A DNA stretch of 64,000 nt, from the sequence record PQ850594.1; one strand, given 5' to 3'. The notes beneath the pieces are model-generated. The model made no database searches. It was not told the origin of the DNA and worked only from the letters and a program-made list of their open reading frames with translations. Shown here in pieces: positions 4,688 to 59,857 of the stretch (within the stretch, counting starts at the first letter, position 1; each line of letters starts with the position of its first letter). Both the position numbers and the translations under genes were made by a program. The stretch is from Escherichia phage AnnaHegner_Bas87.

Positions 4688-5656
4688 ATGGGTGCTGGAG
4701 GTTTTCGAAAGAATACTGGTAGAAACAACACCACACTTCCGTACAATGTTGGTTTTCTAAACAATGTGCAGGATACAGAAACTTACAACGTTGCCGTCTA
4801 TGATGAACTACAAAAAGTTAGTACAGCAACTAATCAGATGTTTCAAGCTATTGATGAAATACATGAAGAAATTGATGTTAGGATTAAAGCTCTTAATGCA
4901 ATGAATCTTCAATTTGATGAACTTGAAAACAGAATTACTACAGAGATCGAAACAGCTATTGCTGATATTCAAACACAGATGGGCAATCTGTCCACTGAAG
5001 ATATTTGGGATAATTCAGTACAACCGCCAGTTAAGCTAGAAAGTTCTATGGCAGGGTTTAAAACTTCTATAGAAGGTAATGAGGTTAAGATACAATCTGT
5101 TGAGGGAATCGTAAACCAGCAGGGAGAGGAAATTGGCTTAGTTCAAACAGAGATCTCCAACATTAACAGCAGTCTATCTTCTTATATGAAGCTATCTGAC
5201 TACGAAGCTACGTGGGGAATTAACTCAAATGTCAACGGTAGGTATGCTGGTGTCAAACTAACTAACAACGGCACGAATAGTCAGTTCCAAGTTACAGCTG
5301 ATAAGTTTGTTGTAGGTGATGGTAACTCGGGTAATACACCTTTTGTATTTGAAGGAGGTCGAGCTAAGATAGAGTTTGCTGATATTAAGAACGTCAATAT
5401 CACAACTGCTCAAATTGCTAATGCTCGTATTCAGTTTGCTCAAATAGATAACGTGTGGATTACTGATGGTCAGATTGCCAATCTTACAGCTAACAAGATC
5501 ACTGCTGGCTCTATGAGTGGTTCAAACTGGAGACTTACTGTTGGTGGGGATTTTGTGATGGGTGGCACAGGTGGGGCACAGCTCTGGATGAATGGTAATA
5601 GAATTGATTTCTATGATGGGAGCGGTGCACTGAGAATCAGAATAGGGAGTTGGTAA
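4688..5656 (+). CDS. tail fibre-like structural protein
   Basis: start moved to ATG at 4688 (GGAGG RBS; track ORF begins at in-frame TTG 4676); coiled-coil N-half, Gly-rich C-half. Confidence 0.4.
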   Translation: MGAGGFRKNTGRNNTTLPYNVGFLNNVQDTETYNVAVYDELQKVSTATNQMFQAIDEIHEEIDVRIKALNAMNLQFDELENRITTEIETAIADIQTQMGNLSTEDIWDNSVQPPVKLESSMAGFKTSIEGNEVKIQSVEGIVNQQGEEIGLVQTEISNINSSLSSYMKLSDYEATWGINSNVNGRYAGVKLTNNGTNSQFQVTADKFVVGDGNSGNTPFVFEGGRAKIEFADIKNVNITTAQIANARIQFAQIDNVWITDGQIANLTANKITAGSMSGSNWRLTVGGDFVMGGTGGAQLWMNGNRIDFYDGSGALRIRIGSW

Positions 5657-5657
5657 T

Positions 5658-6689
5658 ATGGCTTATGGAATATGGTGTCAACCTGTAGGACCGGGACCAG
5701 CTTCCCCAGCTCCTCTCTTTATTGATAGCGGAAGCACTTTTCCTCAAATAAAAAATTCAATAAGTGGGAGTTTCAACTTTAACGGGGCTGGTAGATCTTT
5801 TCCTATTAGTGGGTGGGATGGGAGTGGTCAAATAGTGATTGTACCAACAGGCTCTCTTTGTTGGCAATGGGAGGTTCCTCCTAATTTAGTTCCTGATGTA
5901 TATTGTGTCAACAATATCTATGTAGAGAATAACACATCATTCAGGGTTACATTAAACCAAAACCCGGGAAGCAACCCTTTGTTTGACTGTGGTTTCAATG
6001 TATATCAAATCTACCCAAGAGCTGATAGGAACTATGGAATAACCTTCTCTAATACAGCTGATTATTTCTCTATCTCAGATGCTGGGATTGTGGGTCAATG
6101 CATCTGGGCTTGGCAAGGAACTATAAACAACGCTCTACAGATACCTGATATTGGTGGTTTCTATATGCCTAATGCTGTAGTTTTTGCTAACTGGTCTGAT
6201 GGTGGTGTTGGTTTATCTTATACATCAGGAGATAGGGTGATTCGAGTTTATCAAAACAGGTCTTATAACAATGGCAACACTAATGAAGGTGGTTCTGTGT
6301 TTGCTAGGGTTGCTGTATTTTGTAATGGTGCTGGGGTTCCTGAACACAACGGCGGTTTAAATATATACTCTCCCGGAACTACTCAGTGCGTATTCTCTAC
6401 TTATAGGTCTCCTTTTACAGTAGACACTTTCGTAGGCTCAGCAGGTGGAAATACTGGCTTAGCTTATCCTATGATTCCTCTGTCTTCTGGAGTTGGAGCT
6501 ATCAGAGGAAGTGGGAGTGGTTGGTATTATCAACAAATGCGTTCTCATACCATGTCAGGGTCTTCAATAGGAACTGGATATGGTAGATATATGTTCCAAT
6601 GGTCTAACAGTTATGACTTAGGTTCTAATGCTGCTGTTAATATCTCCATCCCTGTAATCAACGCTGCTAAGATTTTTGCAGGTTTATGA
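5658..6689 (+). CDS. tail fibre / receptor-binding-like structural protein
   Basis: Gly/Asn-rich beta-type composition, structural block; no catalytic motif. Confidence 0.35.
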   Translation: MAYGIWCQPVGPGPASPAPLFIDSGSTFPQIKNSISGSFNFNGAGRSFPISGWDGSGQIVIVPTGSLCWQWEVPPNLVPDVYCVNNIYVENNTSFRVTLNQNPGSNPLFDCGFNVYQIYPRADRNYGITFSNTADYFSISDAGIVGQCIWAWQGTINNALQIPDIGGFYMPNAVVFANWSDGGVGLSYTSGDRVIRVYQNRSYNNGNTNEGGSVFARVAVFCNGAGVPEHNGGLNIYSPGTTQCVFSTYRSPFTVDTFVGSAGGNTGLAYPMIPLSSGVGAIRGSGSGWYYQQMRSHTMSGSSIGTGYGRYMFQWSNSYDLGSNAAVNISIPVINAAKIFAGL

Positions 6690-6701: not shown

Positions 6702-7499
6702 ATGACAAAAATAATGGGAGTGTCAGAGCTTGACCCTTTGGTCCAACAAGCTTCTAAGAAATATGGCATTCCTGCTGCTCTTATACATGCAGTGATTCAG
6801 AGAGAGTCTAATGGAAGACCTTCTGTTGAATCTGGTACAGGACCAGTAGGTTTAATGCAAATCAGTAAGGGGTTGGCTAAAGATTATGGATATAAACTTG
6901 AAGATAGGTTAGACCCTGCAAAGAATATTGACATGGGTGCTAGATATTTAAGAGATAACCTGAAAGCTTTTGATGGTGATGTGAGGAAGGCTTTGGTGGG
7001 GTATTCAGAAGGAACTGGTGGTGCTAAGCAAATGTTTGCTGGTAAGAGAGGGTTTACACCTCAAGCTTTAGATTCAATGAATAATAAGCTGTTCCTACCA
7101 TTCTTTGATAAGAACACAGCAGCGGCACAAGTGGCTAATCCTGTAGGTGCTTTGAAAGCAGTTCAGCCTGTGGACCAGTTTGATTCTAATACGCTGACTA
7201 GAGAAGGTGCTGCAAACGCTCCTACTCAAGCAGAGATAGCTGCAAGCAAGGCTGGAGCTTTAGGTGGTCGTCCTGTAGAGTTTTACTCTGATGAACAATC
7301 TACTGGGGAAAATCAAAAACCTCAACAGAACTTTGGAAATGCTGTATTGGCAGCTGCTTCTATGCTTGCAGGAAAACAGCCTAACTCTCAAACCGTACAG
7401 AGAGCACATGCCCCTACTCAAGCAGGTTCTCGATACAGTCCACAAACACAAGCCGTGCTGAGACGTTTGTCTAGCATAGGTACTGATATTTACAGATAA
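6702..7499 (+). CDS. virion-associated lytic transglycosylase (SLT domain)
   Basis: ESNGRPSVESGTGPVGLMQIS matches the SLT catalytic Glu and GLMQ motif. Confidence 0.7.
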   Translation: MTKIMGVSELDPLVQQASKKYGIPAALIHAVIQRESNGRPSVESGTGPVGLMQISKGLAKDYGYKLEDRLDPAKNIDMGARYLRDNLKAFDGDVRKALVGYSEGTGGAKQMFAGKRGFTPQALDSMNNKLFLPFFDKNTAAAQVANPVGALKAVQPVDQFDSNTLTREGAANAPTQAEIAASKAGALGGRPVEFYSDEQSTGENQKPQQNFGNAVLAAASMLAGKQPNSQTVQRAHAPTQAGSRYSPQTQAVLRRLSSIGTDIYR

Positions 7500-7508
7500 G
7501 GAGGACGT

Positions 7509-8561
7509 ATGTCTCTTTTCGGTTCTGCTCCTAAATCTAAGACTACGGTAGCTCCGTCTTCTCAGGTTGATGCTCTTCTGAAACAGATTGTAGCAAATGC
7601 TCAGGCTATGAATCAAAACGATCAAGGTTTTATTAATCGTAACATAGCAGGTTTTAATGAAAATCAAACAGCAGCTCTTTCTAATTTAGCAAATTCTAAC
7701 ACACTCAACCAACTCAGTAAGATGTACACCCCTAGAACTCAACAAGGGTTGGACCAGATGAATGAGTTGGCTCAGAAATATCAAAACCTAGTTAATAAAG
7801 GTGGTATCACTGCTCAGGATGTTAATAATTTTAGCTCTGGATTGAATAGCTCTGCTTTAGCTAAGTCTACAGGTAAAGCTGCTGCTAATGTATCTCTTGG
7901 TAATGGTTCTGATTCAGGTTCTCTTAGACGTGCTGCTGCTCAAGGTGCTGCTCTCTCTTCAGCGAATACAAACCTTTCTCGTTCTATTCAAGGTAAAAAC
8001 ATGGGTGTTAGCAATCTTATGAATAACAACTCCTATCAGCAAGGTTTGCTCAATGCTCAATCGGGTCTAGCAAATCAGAATCTGAATCTAGGAGCTGCTG
8101 GGGTACAAGCTGGTCAACAGGCAATACAGAATCAGCTCACTGCTGGGAATCTTCAACAACAGCAAGATCAACTCCAAGCTAACAACAATTGGGAGAATGC
8201 TATTGGCAATCAGCAGTATGGTTGGAATCAGCTTAACAACCAGCTTAATGTATTAAACTCAGTAAGCCCAATGGCTGGGTACACCATTACTAACAAAGGT
8301 GCTGCCCCTAATGTTTCACAACAAATCCTTGGTGCTGGGGTTACTGGTCTTGGTATTGCTGGACGTCTAGGTGCTTTTACCCCTAATCAGCAAACTACTA
8401 ATGCTTGGAACTCATACAATGCTTCTGGAGGTCAAGCTGGGATGGCTGGTCCTATGATTGGTGGCTCAAACCTGTCTCAACAGAATGGTCAGAGCAACTG
8501 GTTATCTACCGCAGGAAGTAATATCTTAGGTGGTGTTCTAGGAGCCTTTGGAGCAAATTAA
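7509..8561 (+). CDS. N/Q-rich internal virion protein
   Basis: low-complexity Asn/Gln/Gly-rich; N-terminus MSLFGSAPKSKTT paralogous to next gene. Confidence 0.4.
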   Translation: MSLFGSAPKSKTTVAPSSQVDALLKQIVANAQAMNQNDQGFINRNIAGFNENQTAALSNLANSNTLNQLSKMYTPRTQQGLDQMNELAQKYQNLVNKGGITAQDVNNFSSGLNSSALAKSTGKAAANVSLGNGSDSGSLRRAAAQGAALSSANTNLSRSIQGKNMGVSNLMNNNSYQQGLLNAQSGLANQNLNLGAAGVQAGQQAIQNQLTAGNLQQQQDQLQANNNWENAIGNQQYGWNQLNNQLNVLNSVSPMAGYTITNKGAAPNVSQQILGAGVTGLGIAGRLGAFTPNQQTTNAWNSYNASGGQAGMAGPMIGGSNLSQQNGQSNWLSTAGSNILGGVLGAFGAN

Positions 8562-28773: not shown

Positions 28774-29249
28774 TCCAAAACCCTTTCTTCTAAATCATAA
28801 AAGATTTGATTTGTCCCATTATTCTCAACAAGCACTGTTCCATTATCTAACAGGGTAGCAACTTGGGAATAAGGAATGTTCTTTAACATCAGAGAGTTGG
28901 TGGTTGGCTTCTTTTTGAAGTAAGCGACAGGCTCAACGTAGAAGGAAATCCCACGACTCCCTTTGATTGGAGTACTCGAAGACAATACCCAAATTGTTTC
29001 TGGATTGCCTACTCCTTTTTCAACACCGACCTCAACAAGAGAGTCAGCAGCGAAACCTACAGGACGCCTAGAAGAACCAAGCAACCGAATATATCCCGGT
29101 AGTTTTGACATATTAGACCAACTGCCAGTGTTTTCATTAAACATAGGTCGTGTATTTCCATATGCCCAAACCTGATTATCACAATCGCGGGCTATGTATT
29201 TGGTCCACTCAGGAACATCATATTCTCTTCCTTCAAAAATAGCTTTCAT
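28770..29249 (-). CDS. hypothetical protein
   Basis: ORF only. Confidence 0.4.
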   Translation of the reverse strand: MKAIFEGREYDVPEWTKYIARDCDNQVWAYGNTRPMFNENTGSWSNMSKLPGYIRLLGSSRRPVGFAADSLVEVGVEKGVGNPETIWVLSSSTPIKGSRGISFYVEPVAYFKKKPTTNSLMLKNIPYSQVATLLDNGTVLVENNGTNQIFYDLEERVLE

Positions 29250-56593: not shown

Positions 56594-56627
56594 AAAAGAA
56601 AAAGGCGCTACCCTTTCGAATAGCGCC
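56594..56627 (-). terminator. rho-independent terminator (minus strand)
   Basis: GGCGCTA-10 nt loop-TAGCGCC hairpin followed on minus strand by a T/C-rich run. Confidence 0.55.
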
Positions 56628-56646
56628 CCATGTGTTTTATTGTTGG

Positions 56647-57558
56647 TTATGCTGCCAGTTGACGCGCTGCCATAATCTCAGCGGCCTTGCGCAATACTTC
56701 TTCCTCTTCCTGCGCAGCTTTCTCGTTAGCTTTAACAGTCGAGGCGTTTGAGATACGACCGCGAAGGTTAGATAATTTCTCAGTCATTTCGTTGATCGCC
56801 TTTTCCATTTCATCAGCGTATGAGTCCAGAGATTCAAGCTCTTTAGTCGAGGCATTAATCAGGTAGTCATCGCTGATAGAAACAGTTGAAGCGGTTACTT
56901 TCTTAAGGAGTGAATCGAAAGTTTTCTTAACTTTGCCTACTTCTTCACTCAATGCGATAGTATTGTCAGAAGATGCGCCGTTGCGTTCATCTGCCAGTAG
57001 TGCCGCTTCAATACGGATTGCAGCCAGACGGTCAACCAGTGCATAAATATCCTGATTAAAGTTTTCGTTAACCTTCTGGTTGATCTGGTTTGCTACCGGA
57101 ACGTTGTCGTTGCAACCTTTGTAGAATGCTGGGTTATCAACCTGCACGTCTTCACCTTTAGCAAAGCGTTCAAAGGAATTAGACCAGCGGGCGCGGTTTT
57201 GTTCCATTTTGGCCTTAACTTGTTCCGGTTTAGCATCCTCTTTCGCTTTCGCTTCACCTTCCAGATTAATCCATTTCTTTTTACCGTTCGCCCCGTCGCT
57301 GTTGTACTTGATCGGGGTTAAGAAAGAGATGGCAACCGCAATCACGTCTAAGTCACGATAACGCTCAGTTAACAAGAAATCAACCGCCGCCTGCAATACA
57401 TCCAGTTTCTTACCGTTGGTGCGGAAGTGCTGCAAATGGCCTAACAGGAAGTTAGAAACATCTTGTTTGATTGCCGCGTTGTTGCTACGAATGTTGTTAG
57501 CCAGTGCATTAAAGCCGGATTCGTTAACCAGATTAAAAACTTTAGCCATGATATTCAC
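56647..57558 (-). CDS. hypothetical protein, first long ORF after the ORF-free leader
   Basis: 303 aa; Ala/Lys/Glu-rich helical composition. Confidence 0.45.
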   Translation of the reverse strand: MNIMAKVFNLVNESGFNALANNIRSNNAAIKQDVSNFLLGHLQHFRTNGKKLDVLQAAVDFLLTERYRDLDVIAVAISFLTPIKYNSDGANGKKKWINLEGEAKAKEDAKPEQVKAKMEQNRARWSNSFERFAKGEDVQVDNPAFYKGCNDNVPVANQINQKVNENFNQDIYALVDRLAAIRIEAALLADERNGASSDNTIALSEEVGKVKKTFDSLLKKVTASTVSISDDYLINASTKELESLDSYADEMEKAINEMTEKLSNLRGRISNASTVKANEKAAQEEEEVLRKAAEIMAARQLAA

Positions 57559-57616
57559 CTTTCAATTGTAAGGGCACTATGCCCCGCTCTCTATGAGCTT
57601 TTTAAGTCACTATTGA

Positions 57617-57656
57617 CTTATCAATAATCACTCAATATCAAGTAATTATTGATAAG
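57617..57656. promoter_or_regulatory. perfect 12 bp inverted repeat, operator-like
   Basis: CTTATCAATAAT-16 nt-ATTATTGATAAG about 60-100 nt upstream of the 57558 start. Confidence 0.4.
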
Positions 57657-58468
57657 CGAGGCGGTCTTATCAGGAGTTAACCTTGCCGCCTCCTTATCCG
57701 TGATGTTTCATCTGGTATCTTTAATTAGTCGCTATAAATAAAGCCGACCTGATAGCGATGATCAATCATCACAATAAGGCAGTGCGTCCGACTCTATTTA
57801 ATTACTTTATCGTAACCGTCGGCAATATCGTCTACTTTGCTTTCGCTCCCGCCTATCCTTTTGTACTAACTCTCAATCGCTAACCATCGCCCACTACGGG
57901 AGGTTATTGCGAAAGAGTCATTAGCCGTCTAATACATTGACGTTTTATATCTTTCAGCAGGTTTACTACATAAACTGATTATGTACGCCATCAATAGTGG
58001 CCTCAAATCATTCACATCGTAAACGTTCACACTAAACCTTTTTGTTAAATAGCAATTTGCCACTTTTTAACCATTCACCGCCGCCCCCAATTGGGCGTTA
58101 ATTCGTCGGATTTGCCTACCCTGATAAACTTCTTTCACTGTAGCACCTTGTTAGCGATGGCCGCCGCTACCCTTTAACCGTGGGCGATTAGTTTAGGCCG
58201 TTGCGTGTACTCAATGAATCCGTTTTATCAGTGGTGACGTTTCCAGTTAAGGGATTGTAAAAACTGTTTACCCTGATAATTTAGGGAGTCTTACGCCGTT
58301 TTATCTGGTATGTTTTCCGATGGTTATTATCATCCAACATATTCAACCGATATAGGAGAATGTTTAAATTGTTAAAGAGCGGTAAATCTATCAGTGTGCT
58401 TTCTCACACTATGCAACTGTTAGCCGTTGTTACGCTTTTCTTAAGCGGTGAATTGCTTAAGTGTGCTC

Positions 58469-58497
58469 ATTATGAATCATGCTGTTTTAGCTGTCAA
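58469..58497 (-). promoter_or_regulatory. sigma-70-like promoter (TTGACA-17 bp-CATAAT), leftward
   Basis: on minus strand TTGACA at 58492-58497 and CATAAT at 58469-58474; part of a 38 bp repeat. Confidence 0.45.
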
Positions 58498-58955
58498 CCG
58501 CTTTTTTAATCTTTTTCGTCGTTCCCGCTGTTGGGAAGATATATCAACCAGCTTTGTTTGATTGAAGATTAAGCGGTAAGGCTTAACTTATGATTCATAT
58601 TTTTAAAGAGCGGTGAAGCATTTACAGCTTAACACATCGTGTTAGCTTGTCAACTCTTTTTATCATCTTCTTTTATTCTATTCCCTTATCTCGCTTGAAT
58701 CTTTGCGAAAGGGCAAGATGATAAGTCTGATTTGTCTTTTAGGAATCTAGTGCGCTTTCAAGCATCGACCATTTGAAAGTATCGAACAAATGAGGCTTAT
58801 TTTGTTGCTCATCGTCCGCCTGTTTCACGTATGAATCAGGAATCAATTCTAGTGGTCAACTAAGCGCCTTATAGTAATGACGTCGCCGCCACCTGTAAGA
58901 CAAATCATATTTTTAAAGAGCGGGGATATTTTAAGTCATCGCTGACTGAGTGCTT

Positions 58956-58984
58956 ATTATGAATCAGGCTGTTTTCGGTGTCAA
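58956..58984 (-). promoter_or_regulatory. sigma-70-like promoter (TTGACA-17 bp-CATAAT), leftward, repeat copy 2
   Basis: same arrangement and about 85 percent identical 38 bp block. Confidence 0.45.
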
Positions 58985-59161
58985 TACTATTTTTAAAGTA
59001 TTTTCACTTTCTAGCCTGATTTTTAAAGAGCGTAGCACTTTCATTGTGCGTCTTACTGTCGGTATTCCTACCGCTCCCCGTTGAAGCCTTTTACCGTGAT
59101 GCTAATCACCTATCGAGGAGTTTTTACTACTTGTTGTTACTTACTGCTTACTACGGGATTC

Positions 59162-59189
59162 ATATTACTATACAGGAAAACCCTGTCAA
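59162..59189 (-). promoter_or_regulatory. weaker sigma-70-like promoter within 85 bp duplicated element, copy A
   Basis: TTGACA on minus strand at 59184-59189 with TAATAT-like -10. Confidence 0.3.
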
Positions 59190-59393: not shown

Positions 59394-59417
59394 GAAAAAA
59401 GCGCCTCAAAAGGGCGC
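59394..59417 (-). terminator. rho-independent terminator (minus strand)
   Basis: GCGCC-loop-GGCGC hairpin followed on minus strand by TTTTTT; directly after stop of 59439-59765. Confidence 0.6.
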
Positions 59418-59438
59418 TTAGAGAGTCTTACGGATTGG

Positions 59439-59765
59439 TTACGGATTGGTGCAAGTGCCGTTACCGGATGATATTTCGTTCATCGACTCATCGAACAACG
59501 TCATTCTAGACCGCATCATGTGATCTATAGTGATTTGCTTTCCGGTAATTTCGTTAACAAGCATCGCATACTTGCCATCAACGACACGATGATCATAGTC
59601 ATTCAGGTCAATCAATACTACCTTGCTAGACTTCTTGCCAGTGTCGTAGTTTTCCATAAGATAGGTGCATTGCAGACCATCTAAACTGGCCTCGTTGAAT
59701 ACGGCAGCATGTGACACGGAAGAAACGGCGAACAAGGCAGCAAATACAGCAAATTTAATTTTCAT
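59439..59765 (-). CDS. small secreted periplasmic protein
   Basis: start moved to internal Met: MKIKFAVFAALFAVSSVSHA signal peptide. Confidence 0.45.
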   Translation of the reverse strand: MKIKFAVFAALFAVSSVSHAAVFNEASLDGLQCTYLMENYDTGKKSSKVVLIDLNDYDHRVVDGKYAMLVNEITGKQITIDHMMRSRMTLFDESMNEISSGNGTCTNP

Positions 59766-59857
59766 GATCCAACCCTTAAGCGGAACGTGCAACAAAGAAA
59801 AACAAGTCATAGATAAATGCTATGATACAGAGAACTAACAGACAATGCAAAAAATAC

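Follow-up and report, generated by a model that had tools for sequence, protein, structure and literature searches.

Four copies of a short motif in the genome of Escherichia phage AnnaHegner_Bas87 (PQ850594.1) are probably best explained as host-type boxA antitermination signals. The copies lie in a ~1.9-kb gap between the homologues of genes phi32_124 and phi32_125, upstream of a large structured non-coding RNA. The DNA analyzed is a 64,000-nucleotide stretch of this genome (the window); positions are counted from its first letter, and the plus strand is the strand as written. By its sequence the window comes from a Kuravirus of the phiEco32 type. The region shares 92% identity with phiEco32 (EU330206, 73041-74637) and with ~100 further Kuravirus and Suseptimavirus genomes. 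The gap holds no annotated gene in phiEco32 or SU10.

A search of the window with TTTTTAAAGAGCGG, allowing up to two mismatches, returned exactly four matches, all on the plus strand as written. They fall within 660 bp. On the transcribed strand the motif reads (C/A)CGCTCTTTAA(C/A)AA, and the four copies are:

58369-58382, minus strand (transcribed): copy 1, plus strand TTGTTAAAGAGCGG, one mismatch; boxA CCGCTCTTTAACAA, leader type
58600-58613, minus strand (transcribed): copy 2, exact match; boxA CCGCTCTTTAAAAA, spacer type
58910-58923, minus strand (transcribed): copy 3, exact match; boxA CCGCTCTTTAAAAA
59020-59033, minus strand (transcribed): copy 4, plus strand TTTTTAAAGAGCGT, one mismatch; boxA ACGCTCTTTAAAAA followed by TCAGG

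Dinucleotide-shuffled versions of the window contain 0.54 matches to TTTTTAAAGAGCGG on average, and 0 of 100 reach four. The 9-nt core GCTCTTTAA is confined within the window to the four copies, on the minus strand each time. The count of the core alone is mildly unusual, being reached in 4 of 100 shuffles; the rough chance of four core matches on one strand within 660 bp is 5e-7. A preliminary description made from the sequence alone had reported four copies of the motif with irregular spacing. The shuffles show an excess, the core-to-core distances of 110, 310, and 231 bp bear out the spacing, and the four clustered sites stand, although they are two exact and two near copies and not four identical ones. 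The same description had the motif often preceded by either of two flanks. Both flanks are present, each at one copy only: TGATTCATAT at copy 2 and ATCATAT at copy 3.

All four copies match GYTCTTTAANA, the boxA consensus derived for gamma-proteobacteria by Baniulyte et al. (PMC5725501). This consensus has five matches in the window against 0.62 expected. The fifth, GTTCTTTAACA at 28878-28888 on the plus strand, lies far from the leader and is probably a chance occurrence. The copies were compared with the leader and the 16S-23S spacer of the E. coli K-12 rrnB operon, where the leader reads ...GCGAAGCGGCAC-TGCTCTTTAACAATTTATCA and the spacer reads ...TTTGAGATATT-TGCTCTTTAAAAATCTGG. Copy 1 and the rrnB leader boxA are identical over 16 nt (GCTCTTTAACAATTTA), copy 4 and the spacer boxA are identical over 14 nt (GCTCTTTAAAAATC), and the spacer variant GCTCTTTAAAAA is present in copies 2 to 4. 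With copy 1 of the leader type and copy 4 of the spacer type, the phage holds both host variants together with part of their 3′ flanks. By its sequence the motif is boxA, the type of RNA element bound by host NusB-NusE(S10). A promoter for the phage sigma factor was also considered as an identity for the motif and was ruled out, the gp36 consensus being TAATGTATA.

Conservation was assessed in 17 relatives: SU10, phiEco32, ECBP2, NJ01, KBNP1711, EcoN5, MN05, Bas89, O18-011, 1-6bf, IMEP8, TH34, Bas86, SU7, TH43, NC-B, and one metagenomic contig. This set includes a duplicate phiEco32 locus and makes 18 genomes together with the window. Each genome has 3-5 copies in the leader, on the sense strand throughout, and the GCTCTTTAA core is invariant. 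The invariance holds across ~25% sequence divergence while neighboring positions vary. Upstream flanks of boxA are replaced in relatives by unrelated sequences that again form hairpins, and copy 2 is conserved despite at least four unrelated replacement sequences in its upstream flank. The alternation promoter-boxA-promoter-boxA is maintained in all relatives compared. More distant relatives were also sought. A protein search of IMG/VR returned five close relatives only, and a metagenome scan with an invariant 16-mer gave at least three true relatives among the 120 stretches in the matches listed.

Two side observations concern the distribution of the copies. The modules are mosaic, with blocks such as 58720-58909 present in some genomes and absent from others and with breakpoints exactly at boxA, which suggests recombination between copies. 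NJ01 carries an extra perfect CCGCTCTTTAACAA on the antisense strand at ~5960, ~2 kb downstream of the leader; the window has no equivalent.

The preliminary description placed each copy downstream of a leftward promoter, and a sigma-70-like promoter does precede every copy:

58469-58497, minus strand: promoter P-A, TTGACA-17-CATAAT, 11 of 12 matches; kept in all relatives; the SU10 early promoter listed at 73511
58626-58653, minus strand: promoter P-B, TTGACA-16-TAAGCT with a TG extended -10; the SU10 promoter at 73668; missing from some relatives
58956-58984, minus strand: promoter P-C, TTGACA-17-CATAAT; the SU10 promoter at 73996
59162-59189, minus strand: promoter P-D, TTGACA-16-TAATAT; known from prediction alone, with no entry in the SU10 table

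The promoters are already known in part: for this spacer the authors of the SU10 genome paper give three early promoters, at positions that correspond exactly, and they state that phiEco32 matches. Measured from the predicted starts, copy 1 lies ~82 nt after P-A, copy 2 ~7-8 nt after P-B, copy 3 ~28 nt after P-C, and copy 4 ~124 nt after P-D. The copies are therefore on the transcribed strand 8-124 nt after the predicted starts of near-consensus promoters, which would place boxA in the nascent RNA.

Hairpins precede copies 1, 3, and 4, and copy 2 alone has a 3′ hairpin instead. The three 5′ hairpins are:

58392-58411, minus strand: hairpin UAGUGUG-AGAAAG-CACACUG, 10 nt 5′ of copy 1, positioned as boxB in rrn operons
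58934-58947, minus strand: hairpin AGUCA-GCGA-UGACU with a GNRA-type loop, 11-12 nt 5′ of copy 3
59035-59049, minus strand: hairpin GCAC-AAUGAAA-GUGC, its 3′ end 3 nt ahead of the copy 4 boxA core; unrelated hairpins stand there in relatives

The hairpin at copy 1 covaries, one of its pairs being seen as UA, CG, AU, and GC. Its covariation score is 0.357 compared to 0.157 in shuffles (0 of 500 reach the observed score) and falls to at most 0.10 when the partners are slid. These compensatory changes indicate selection on RNA made from the minus strand. The GTCAGCGATGAC core of the copy 3 hairpin recurs in most relatives. Relatives carry the hairpins GGCAAGAAATTGCC and GGCTAGATGTTTAGCC at copy 4, and GGCACTTAGTGCC adjoins a different copy; these three and GCGGTGTTATGTGAGCCGC end 1-3 nt before boxA, while others lie 10-13 nt upstream. 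Most copies have a boxB-like 5′ hairpin of this kind, 1-13 nt upstream. The mean folding energy of the hairpin stretches is modestly below that of controls (-7.7 vs -5.9 kcal/mol). A stem TTAAGC/GCTTAA is common to two further hairpins with different loops on the minus strand (58569-58586 and 58441-58460). One lies 13 nt 3′ of copy 2, and the P-A transcript begins with the other; relatives retain the stem and vary in the loop.

Copy 1 directly adjoins the downstream RNA, at the 5′ strand of its first long-range helix. This RNA is organized as follows:

57548-58368, minus strand: structured non-coding RNA of ~820 nt in three domains, running into the start of the gene 124 homologue
58066-58368, minus strand: domain I, closing helix 58355-58368 with 58066-58079; contains covarying pairs
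57771-58045, minus strand: domain II, closing helix 58036-58045 with 57771-57780; contains covarying pairs
57548-57769, minus strand: domain III, closing helix 57757-57769 with 57548-57559; without covarying pairs

The ~830 nt from copy 1 to the gene 124 start are conserved at least as strongly as coding sequence. RNAalifold analysis of the 18 sequences gave 229 pairs, of which 71 show compensatory double changes, and an energy of -233.5 kcal/mol, to which the covariation term contributes -21.7. Shuffling reduced the covarying pairs to 29.5 ± 3.5 (0 of 500 reach 71), and sliding the partners reduced them to 5-10. The adjacent 824 nt of coding sequence, taken from the same genomes through the same pipeline as a control, gave 152 pairs, 10 covarying pairs, and -71.7 kcal/mol. 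In an independent count 98.9% of cells were paired on the sense strand and 87.8% on the antisense strand; with 472 G-U cells, the structure fits the sense strand better. The single-sequence fold has a z-score of -7.7 relative to shuffles. The preliminary description called the leader free of open reading frames (ORFs). The 18 sequences indeed have no conserved ORF and no codon periodicity in the RNA region, and they carry many single-base indels, but the leader is itself this large structured RNA, which was overlooked.

The RNA resembles GOLLD, ROOL, OLE, and HEARO in being ~800 nt long with multiple covarying domains, and GOLLD and ROOL are also phage-associated. It differs from them in that no Rfam model matches it, even at E-values up to 10. 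Two permissive scans of Rfam 15, which includes these four families, introns, RNase P, and tmRNA, gave chance-level matches far below the gathering scores. No similar sequence was found in E. coli genomes. All 97 phage records with a match (blastn) have the RNA at full length, and the matches were confined to E. coli and Shigella phages of the genera Kuravirus and Suseptimavirus. The gp124 protein is likewise found in 97 phage records (tblastn), and the named hosts of these gp124/RNA records are E. coli or Shigella. The ~820-nt RNA is more novel than the boxA motif and is apparently undescribed.

Two local features of the RNA were also recorded. The Shine-Dalgarno sequence (GGTGA) and start codon of gene 124 are predicted to pair ~200 nt upstream (57548-57559 with 57757-57769). 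Since the helices that would form this pairing show no covariation, control of gene 124 translation by the RNA is no more than possible. A boxA-like sequence, GCTATTTAACAA at 58042-58053 on the minus strand, has C4 changed to A and lies where domains I and II meet, in part within a predicted hairpin. Among the 18 genomes it varies by a single C-to-T change, in TH34. This element recalls the rrn 16S-23S spacer, with its second boxA, but deviates from boxA at a position reported to be critical.

The function of boxA in the host provides the model for its proposed role here. The rrn boxA is necessary and sufficient to assemble an antitermination complex of NusA, NusB, NusE, NusG, SuhB, and S4 that resists Rho. 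It is proposed that this complex retains the leader at the exit channel for RNA and thereby allows the 16S leader-trailer helix to form. Rho terminates untranslated transcripts, and boxA protects ribosomal RNA (rRNA) and long non-coding transcripts such as CRISPR arrays. The phage boxA is likewise followed by a long untranslated transcript, the ~820-nt RNA. Each host RNA polymerase that starts in the array early in infection would transcribe a boxA, and the nascent boxA would be bound by host NusB/NusE. Together with NusA, NusG, and SuhB, NusB/NusE would convert the polymerase into an antitermination complex of the rRNA type. Such a Rho-resistant, fast-elongating complex would then cross ~0.8-1.6 kb of untranslated sequence and reach gene 124. 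As boxA would stay attached at the exit channel, the complex may in addition promote closure of the long-range helix that starts directly after copy 1.

Several observations weigh against this explanation. Partition-function folding predicts an unpaired probability of 0.43 for boxA compared to 0.45 for its flanks, a comparison that says little on co-transcriptional binding. In rrn operons a GU-rich boxC stands 18-19 nt 3′ of boxA and forms the 5′ strand of the leader-trailer helix, whereas no GU-rich boxC-like element was found 3′ of any phage copy and the full rrn signal boxB-boxA-boxC is not present. Copy 2, only ~7-8 nt into its own transcript, is unusually close to the start. Inspection by GC-skew revealed no obvious C-rich Rho loading site; over 57800-58150 the transcript is rich in G instead. 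Rho acts poorly on compact RNAs. Copy 1 is downstream of every promoter, which leaves the three further copies unexplained; efficiency in competition with the seven rrn operons and titration of Nus factors are possibilities for this redundancy. A literature search returned nothing linking boxA, antitermination, or structured RNA to phiEco32 or Kuravirus, but two primary papers on phiEco32 transcription were outside its reach and a prior description is possible.

Titration could also be the main purpose of the array. In that case boxA would bind NusB/NusE chiefly as a decoy: with several consensus copies in each transcript from very strong early promoters, it would use up limiting Nus factors and cripple host rRNA synthesis and ribosome assembly. 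A decoy would account for 3-5 copies although copy 1 serves every promoter, and for the mimicry of both the leader-type and the spacer-type host variants, flanks included. When consensus boxA is transcribed from plasmids, it competes for a host factor that lambda N requires. However, the copies are always tied to the downstream structured RNA and gene 124, a single copy suffices in T7, and the phage already has gp79 for the shut-off of sigma-70 transcription. A decoy as the main function is unlikely, and it is compatible with antitermination and not exclusive of it.

The hairpins raise the alternative of lambda-type nut sites, in which hairpin and boxA are read by an N-like phage protein and the resulting complex also passes intrinsic terminators such as the one after gene 124. 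Nearly all copies have a hairpin beside them, in one case with a loop of the GNRA type; further downstream there is a strong intrinsic terminator (56602-56629), and four small genes transcribed just upstream of the array have no known function. The order, however, is hairpin then boxA as in rrn and not lambda's boxA then boxB, and the hairpin sequences vary from copy to copy and from phage to phage, which rules out their recognition by a single protein. The phage boxA has the complete consensus, and in rrn such a boxA needs no phage protein. A search of the neighboring proteins for N-like families found none (the full proteome was not scanned). These points make nut sites distinctly improbable.

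Action at the DNA level is very improbable. The preliminary description listed a binding site for a phage regulator among the candidate roles, and a repeated motif clustered in non-coding DNA near promoters would suit operators for a phage or host DNA-binding regulator or replication-origin iterons. A binding signal near transcript starts is what the motif appears to be; a DNA site for a phage regulator is disfavored by the host boxA sequence, by its strand specificity in the 18 genomes, and by the covarying hairpin. The sequence is asymmetric and occupies one strand in 18 of 18 genomes, the copies are 8-124 nt downstream of transcription starts and not over the promoters, and the motif is identical to a host RNA signal. 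The adjacent hairpin covaries, the G-U pairs of the downstream RNA fit the sense strand only, and the phage sigma factor recognizes TAATGTATA and not the motif. Least probable of all is a duplication or recombination residue or an RNase processing signal without a role in elongation: mosaic module junctions fall at the motif and the copy number ranges from 3 to 5, but unrelated flanks mean that the copies are not recent duplicates, the 9-nt core stays invariant across ~25% divergence among variable neighbors, the processing signal proposed in the preliminary description has no specific support, and we know of no RNase recognition motif of this sequence.

Host-type boxA antitermination remains the preferred explanation, and a more tentative proposal builds on it. 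The array may be a miniature imitation of an rRNA operon, in which promoters, boxB-like hairpins, and host-identical boxA drive the ~820-nt RNA, the synthesis and long-range folding of the RNA depend on the host complex, and the RNA is an early effector; this proposal is about as easily doubted as believed. Such an effector might form a ribonucleoprotein with co-transcribed gp124, or it might be a decoy that draws off Nus factors or proteins of ribosome assembly. If this proposal is true, the RNA would stand for a new class among the large functional RNAs of phages, and the Nus machinery would have a new use.

The closest known system is the E. coli rrn operon. Its boxA is identical to the phage copies in both variants (leader AACAA and spacer AAAAA), it has strong tandem promoters and a hairpin before boxA (order boxB-boxA), and its boxA lies just upstream of a long-range helix enclosing a large structured untranslated RNA. 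The geometry at copy 4 matches that of the rrnB spacer, where the hairpin ends ~2 nt before boxA. The phage differs in being virulent, in having 3-5 boxA copies, one per promoter, compared to one per leader, and in its product, which is the ~820-nt RNA (putatively Nus-dependent) and a protein gene and not rRNA. The element is thus of a known kind, and it is the arrangement that is new, in that a virulent phage has multiple copies, each with its own promoter, ahead of a large non-coding RNA.

The nutL and nutR sites of lambda also place boxA in early host-polymerase transcripts to modify elongation, as is proposed for the phage. In lambda, boxB is 3′ of boxA and N is required, whereas the phage has a full-consensus boxA, mostly 5′ hairpins, and no N analogue among the neighboring proteins. 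The lambda boxA, CGCTCTTA, deviates from the consensus. Outside rRNA, boxA elements upstream of CRISPR arrays and in the suhB 5′ untranslated region (Stringer 2020, Baniulyte 2017) have the same consensus as the phage copies and protect long untranslated transcripts from Rho, a role that the phage copies would share. Those elements are single chromosomal copies, whereas the phage has several upstream of a folded RNA.

T7 and other Autographiviridae are virulent like the present phage and have a consensus boxA shortly after strong host-type early promoters. The T7 boxA, GCTCTTTAACA at 813-823, is the only consensus copy in 39.9 kb and lies downstream of A1-A3, 63 nt after the A3 start. In this type boxA precedes translated early genes (0.3/ocr and others) and not a large non-coding RNA. 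The resemblance of the T7 sequence to boxA has presumably been mentioned in older literature.

More than 120 IMG/VR contigs contain the 14-mer CCGCTCTTTAACAA, and several of those with two copies have the divergent boxA-boxB pairs typical of lambdoid nut sites. Three IMG/VR contigs have three copies on the same strand: a Klebsiella T7-like phage (98.8% identical to K1-ULIP33 at 412-2512; copies in contig L025 at 5294-6574), Pseudomonas phage Njord (positions 600-2200; copies at 902-1646), and contig L024 (3775-4532). In the Klebsiella phage and Njord the copies follow TTGACA promoters at the left, early genome end. The recurrence of promoter-proximal boxA in unrelated virulent phages strengthens its identification here, and it also means that boxA itself is not unique to Kuraviruses. 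These sequences suggest that virulent phages, and not only lambdoid ones, may routinely exploit host Nus factors and boxA in early units transcribed by the host polymerase.

Salmonella phage 7-11, a relative of phiEco32, has no match to the RNA and no boxA in its early 15 kb, and the paper on this phage states that its antitermination strategy 'remains to be defined'. An ORF-free gap of 711 nt in the early region of 7-11 (7135-7845) contains no boxA and folds only slightly better than shuffles, with a z-score of -2.6. The 3′ part of this gap seems to be an unannotated tRNA-like sequence.

The proposed role supplies a concrete, testable function for a 1.9-kb 'empty' region in 97 sequenced phiEco32-like phages, a group that includes a model phage for transcription studies. 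Several phage-therapy candidates are among these phages. The large structured RNA, with its unusually strong covariation and no Rfam family, would be made in the manner of rRNA in E. coli, the most tractable host, and its structure and function can be studied directly.

The array and the RNA are framed by the following genes and terminators:

56602-56629, minus strand: intrinsic terminator after the gene 124 homologue, a 12-bp stem then a T run; SU7 annotates a terminator at the same place
56647-57549, minus strand: homologue of phi32_124, a 300-aa protein, the sole coding gene of this transcription unit
59399-59419, minus strand: intrinsic terminator closing the upstream early operon, also annotated as a terminator in SU10
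59439-59810, minus strand: homologue of phi32_125, 123 aa, directly upstream of the promoter-boxA array

Because the terminator at 59399-59419 ends the upstream operon, the promoter-boxA array starts a separate transcription unit, and the terminator at 56602-56629 is probably the end of that unit. The gp124 homologue matched no Pfam family and is placed in PHROG 13018, the function of which is unknown. The neighboring proteins matched no Pfam families, and their PHROGs matches were uninformative. The 123-aa protein carries the PHROG label 'terminase', with the same annotation in Bas86 and Bas89. Such a label is unexpected on a small early gene and may be an error carried over from one annotation to the next.

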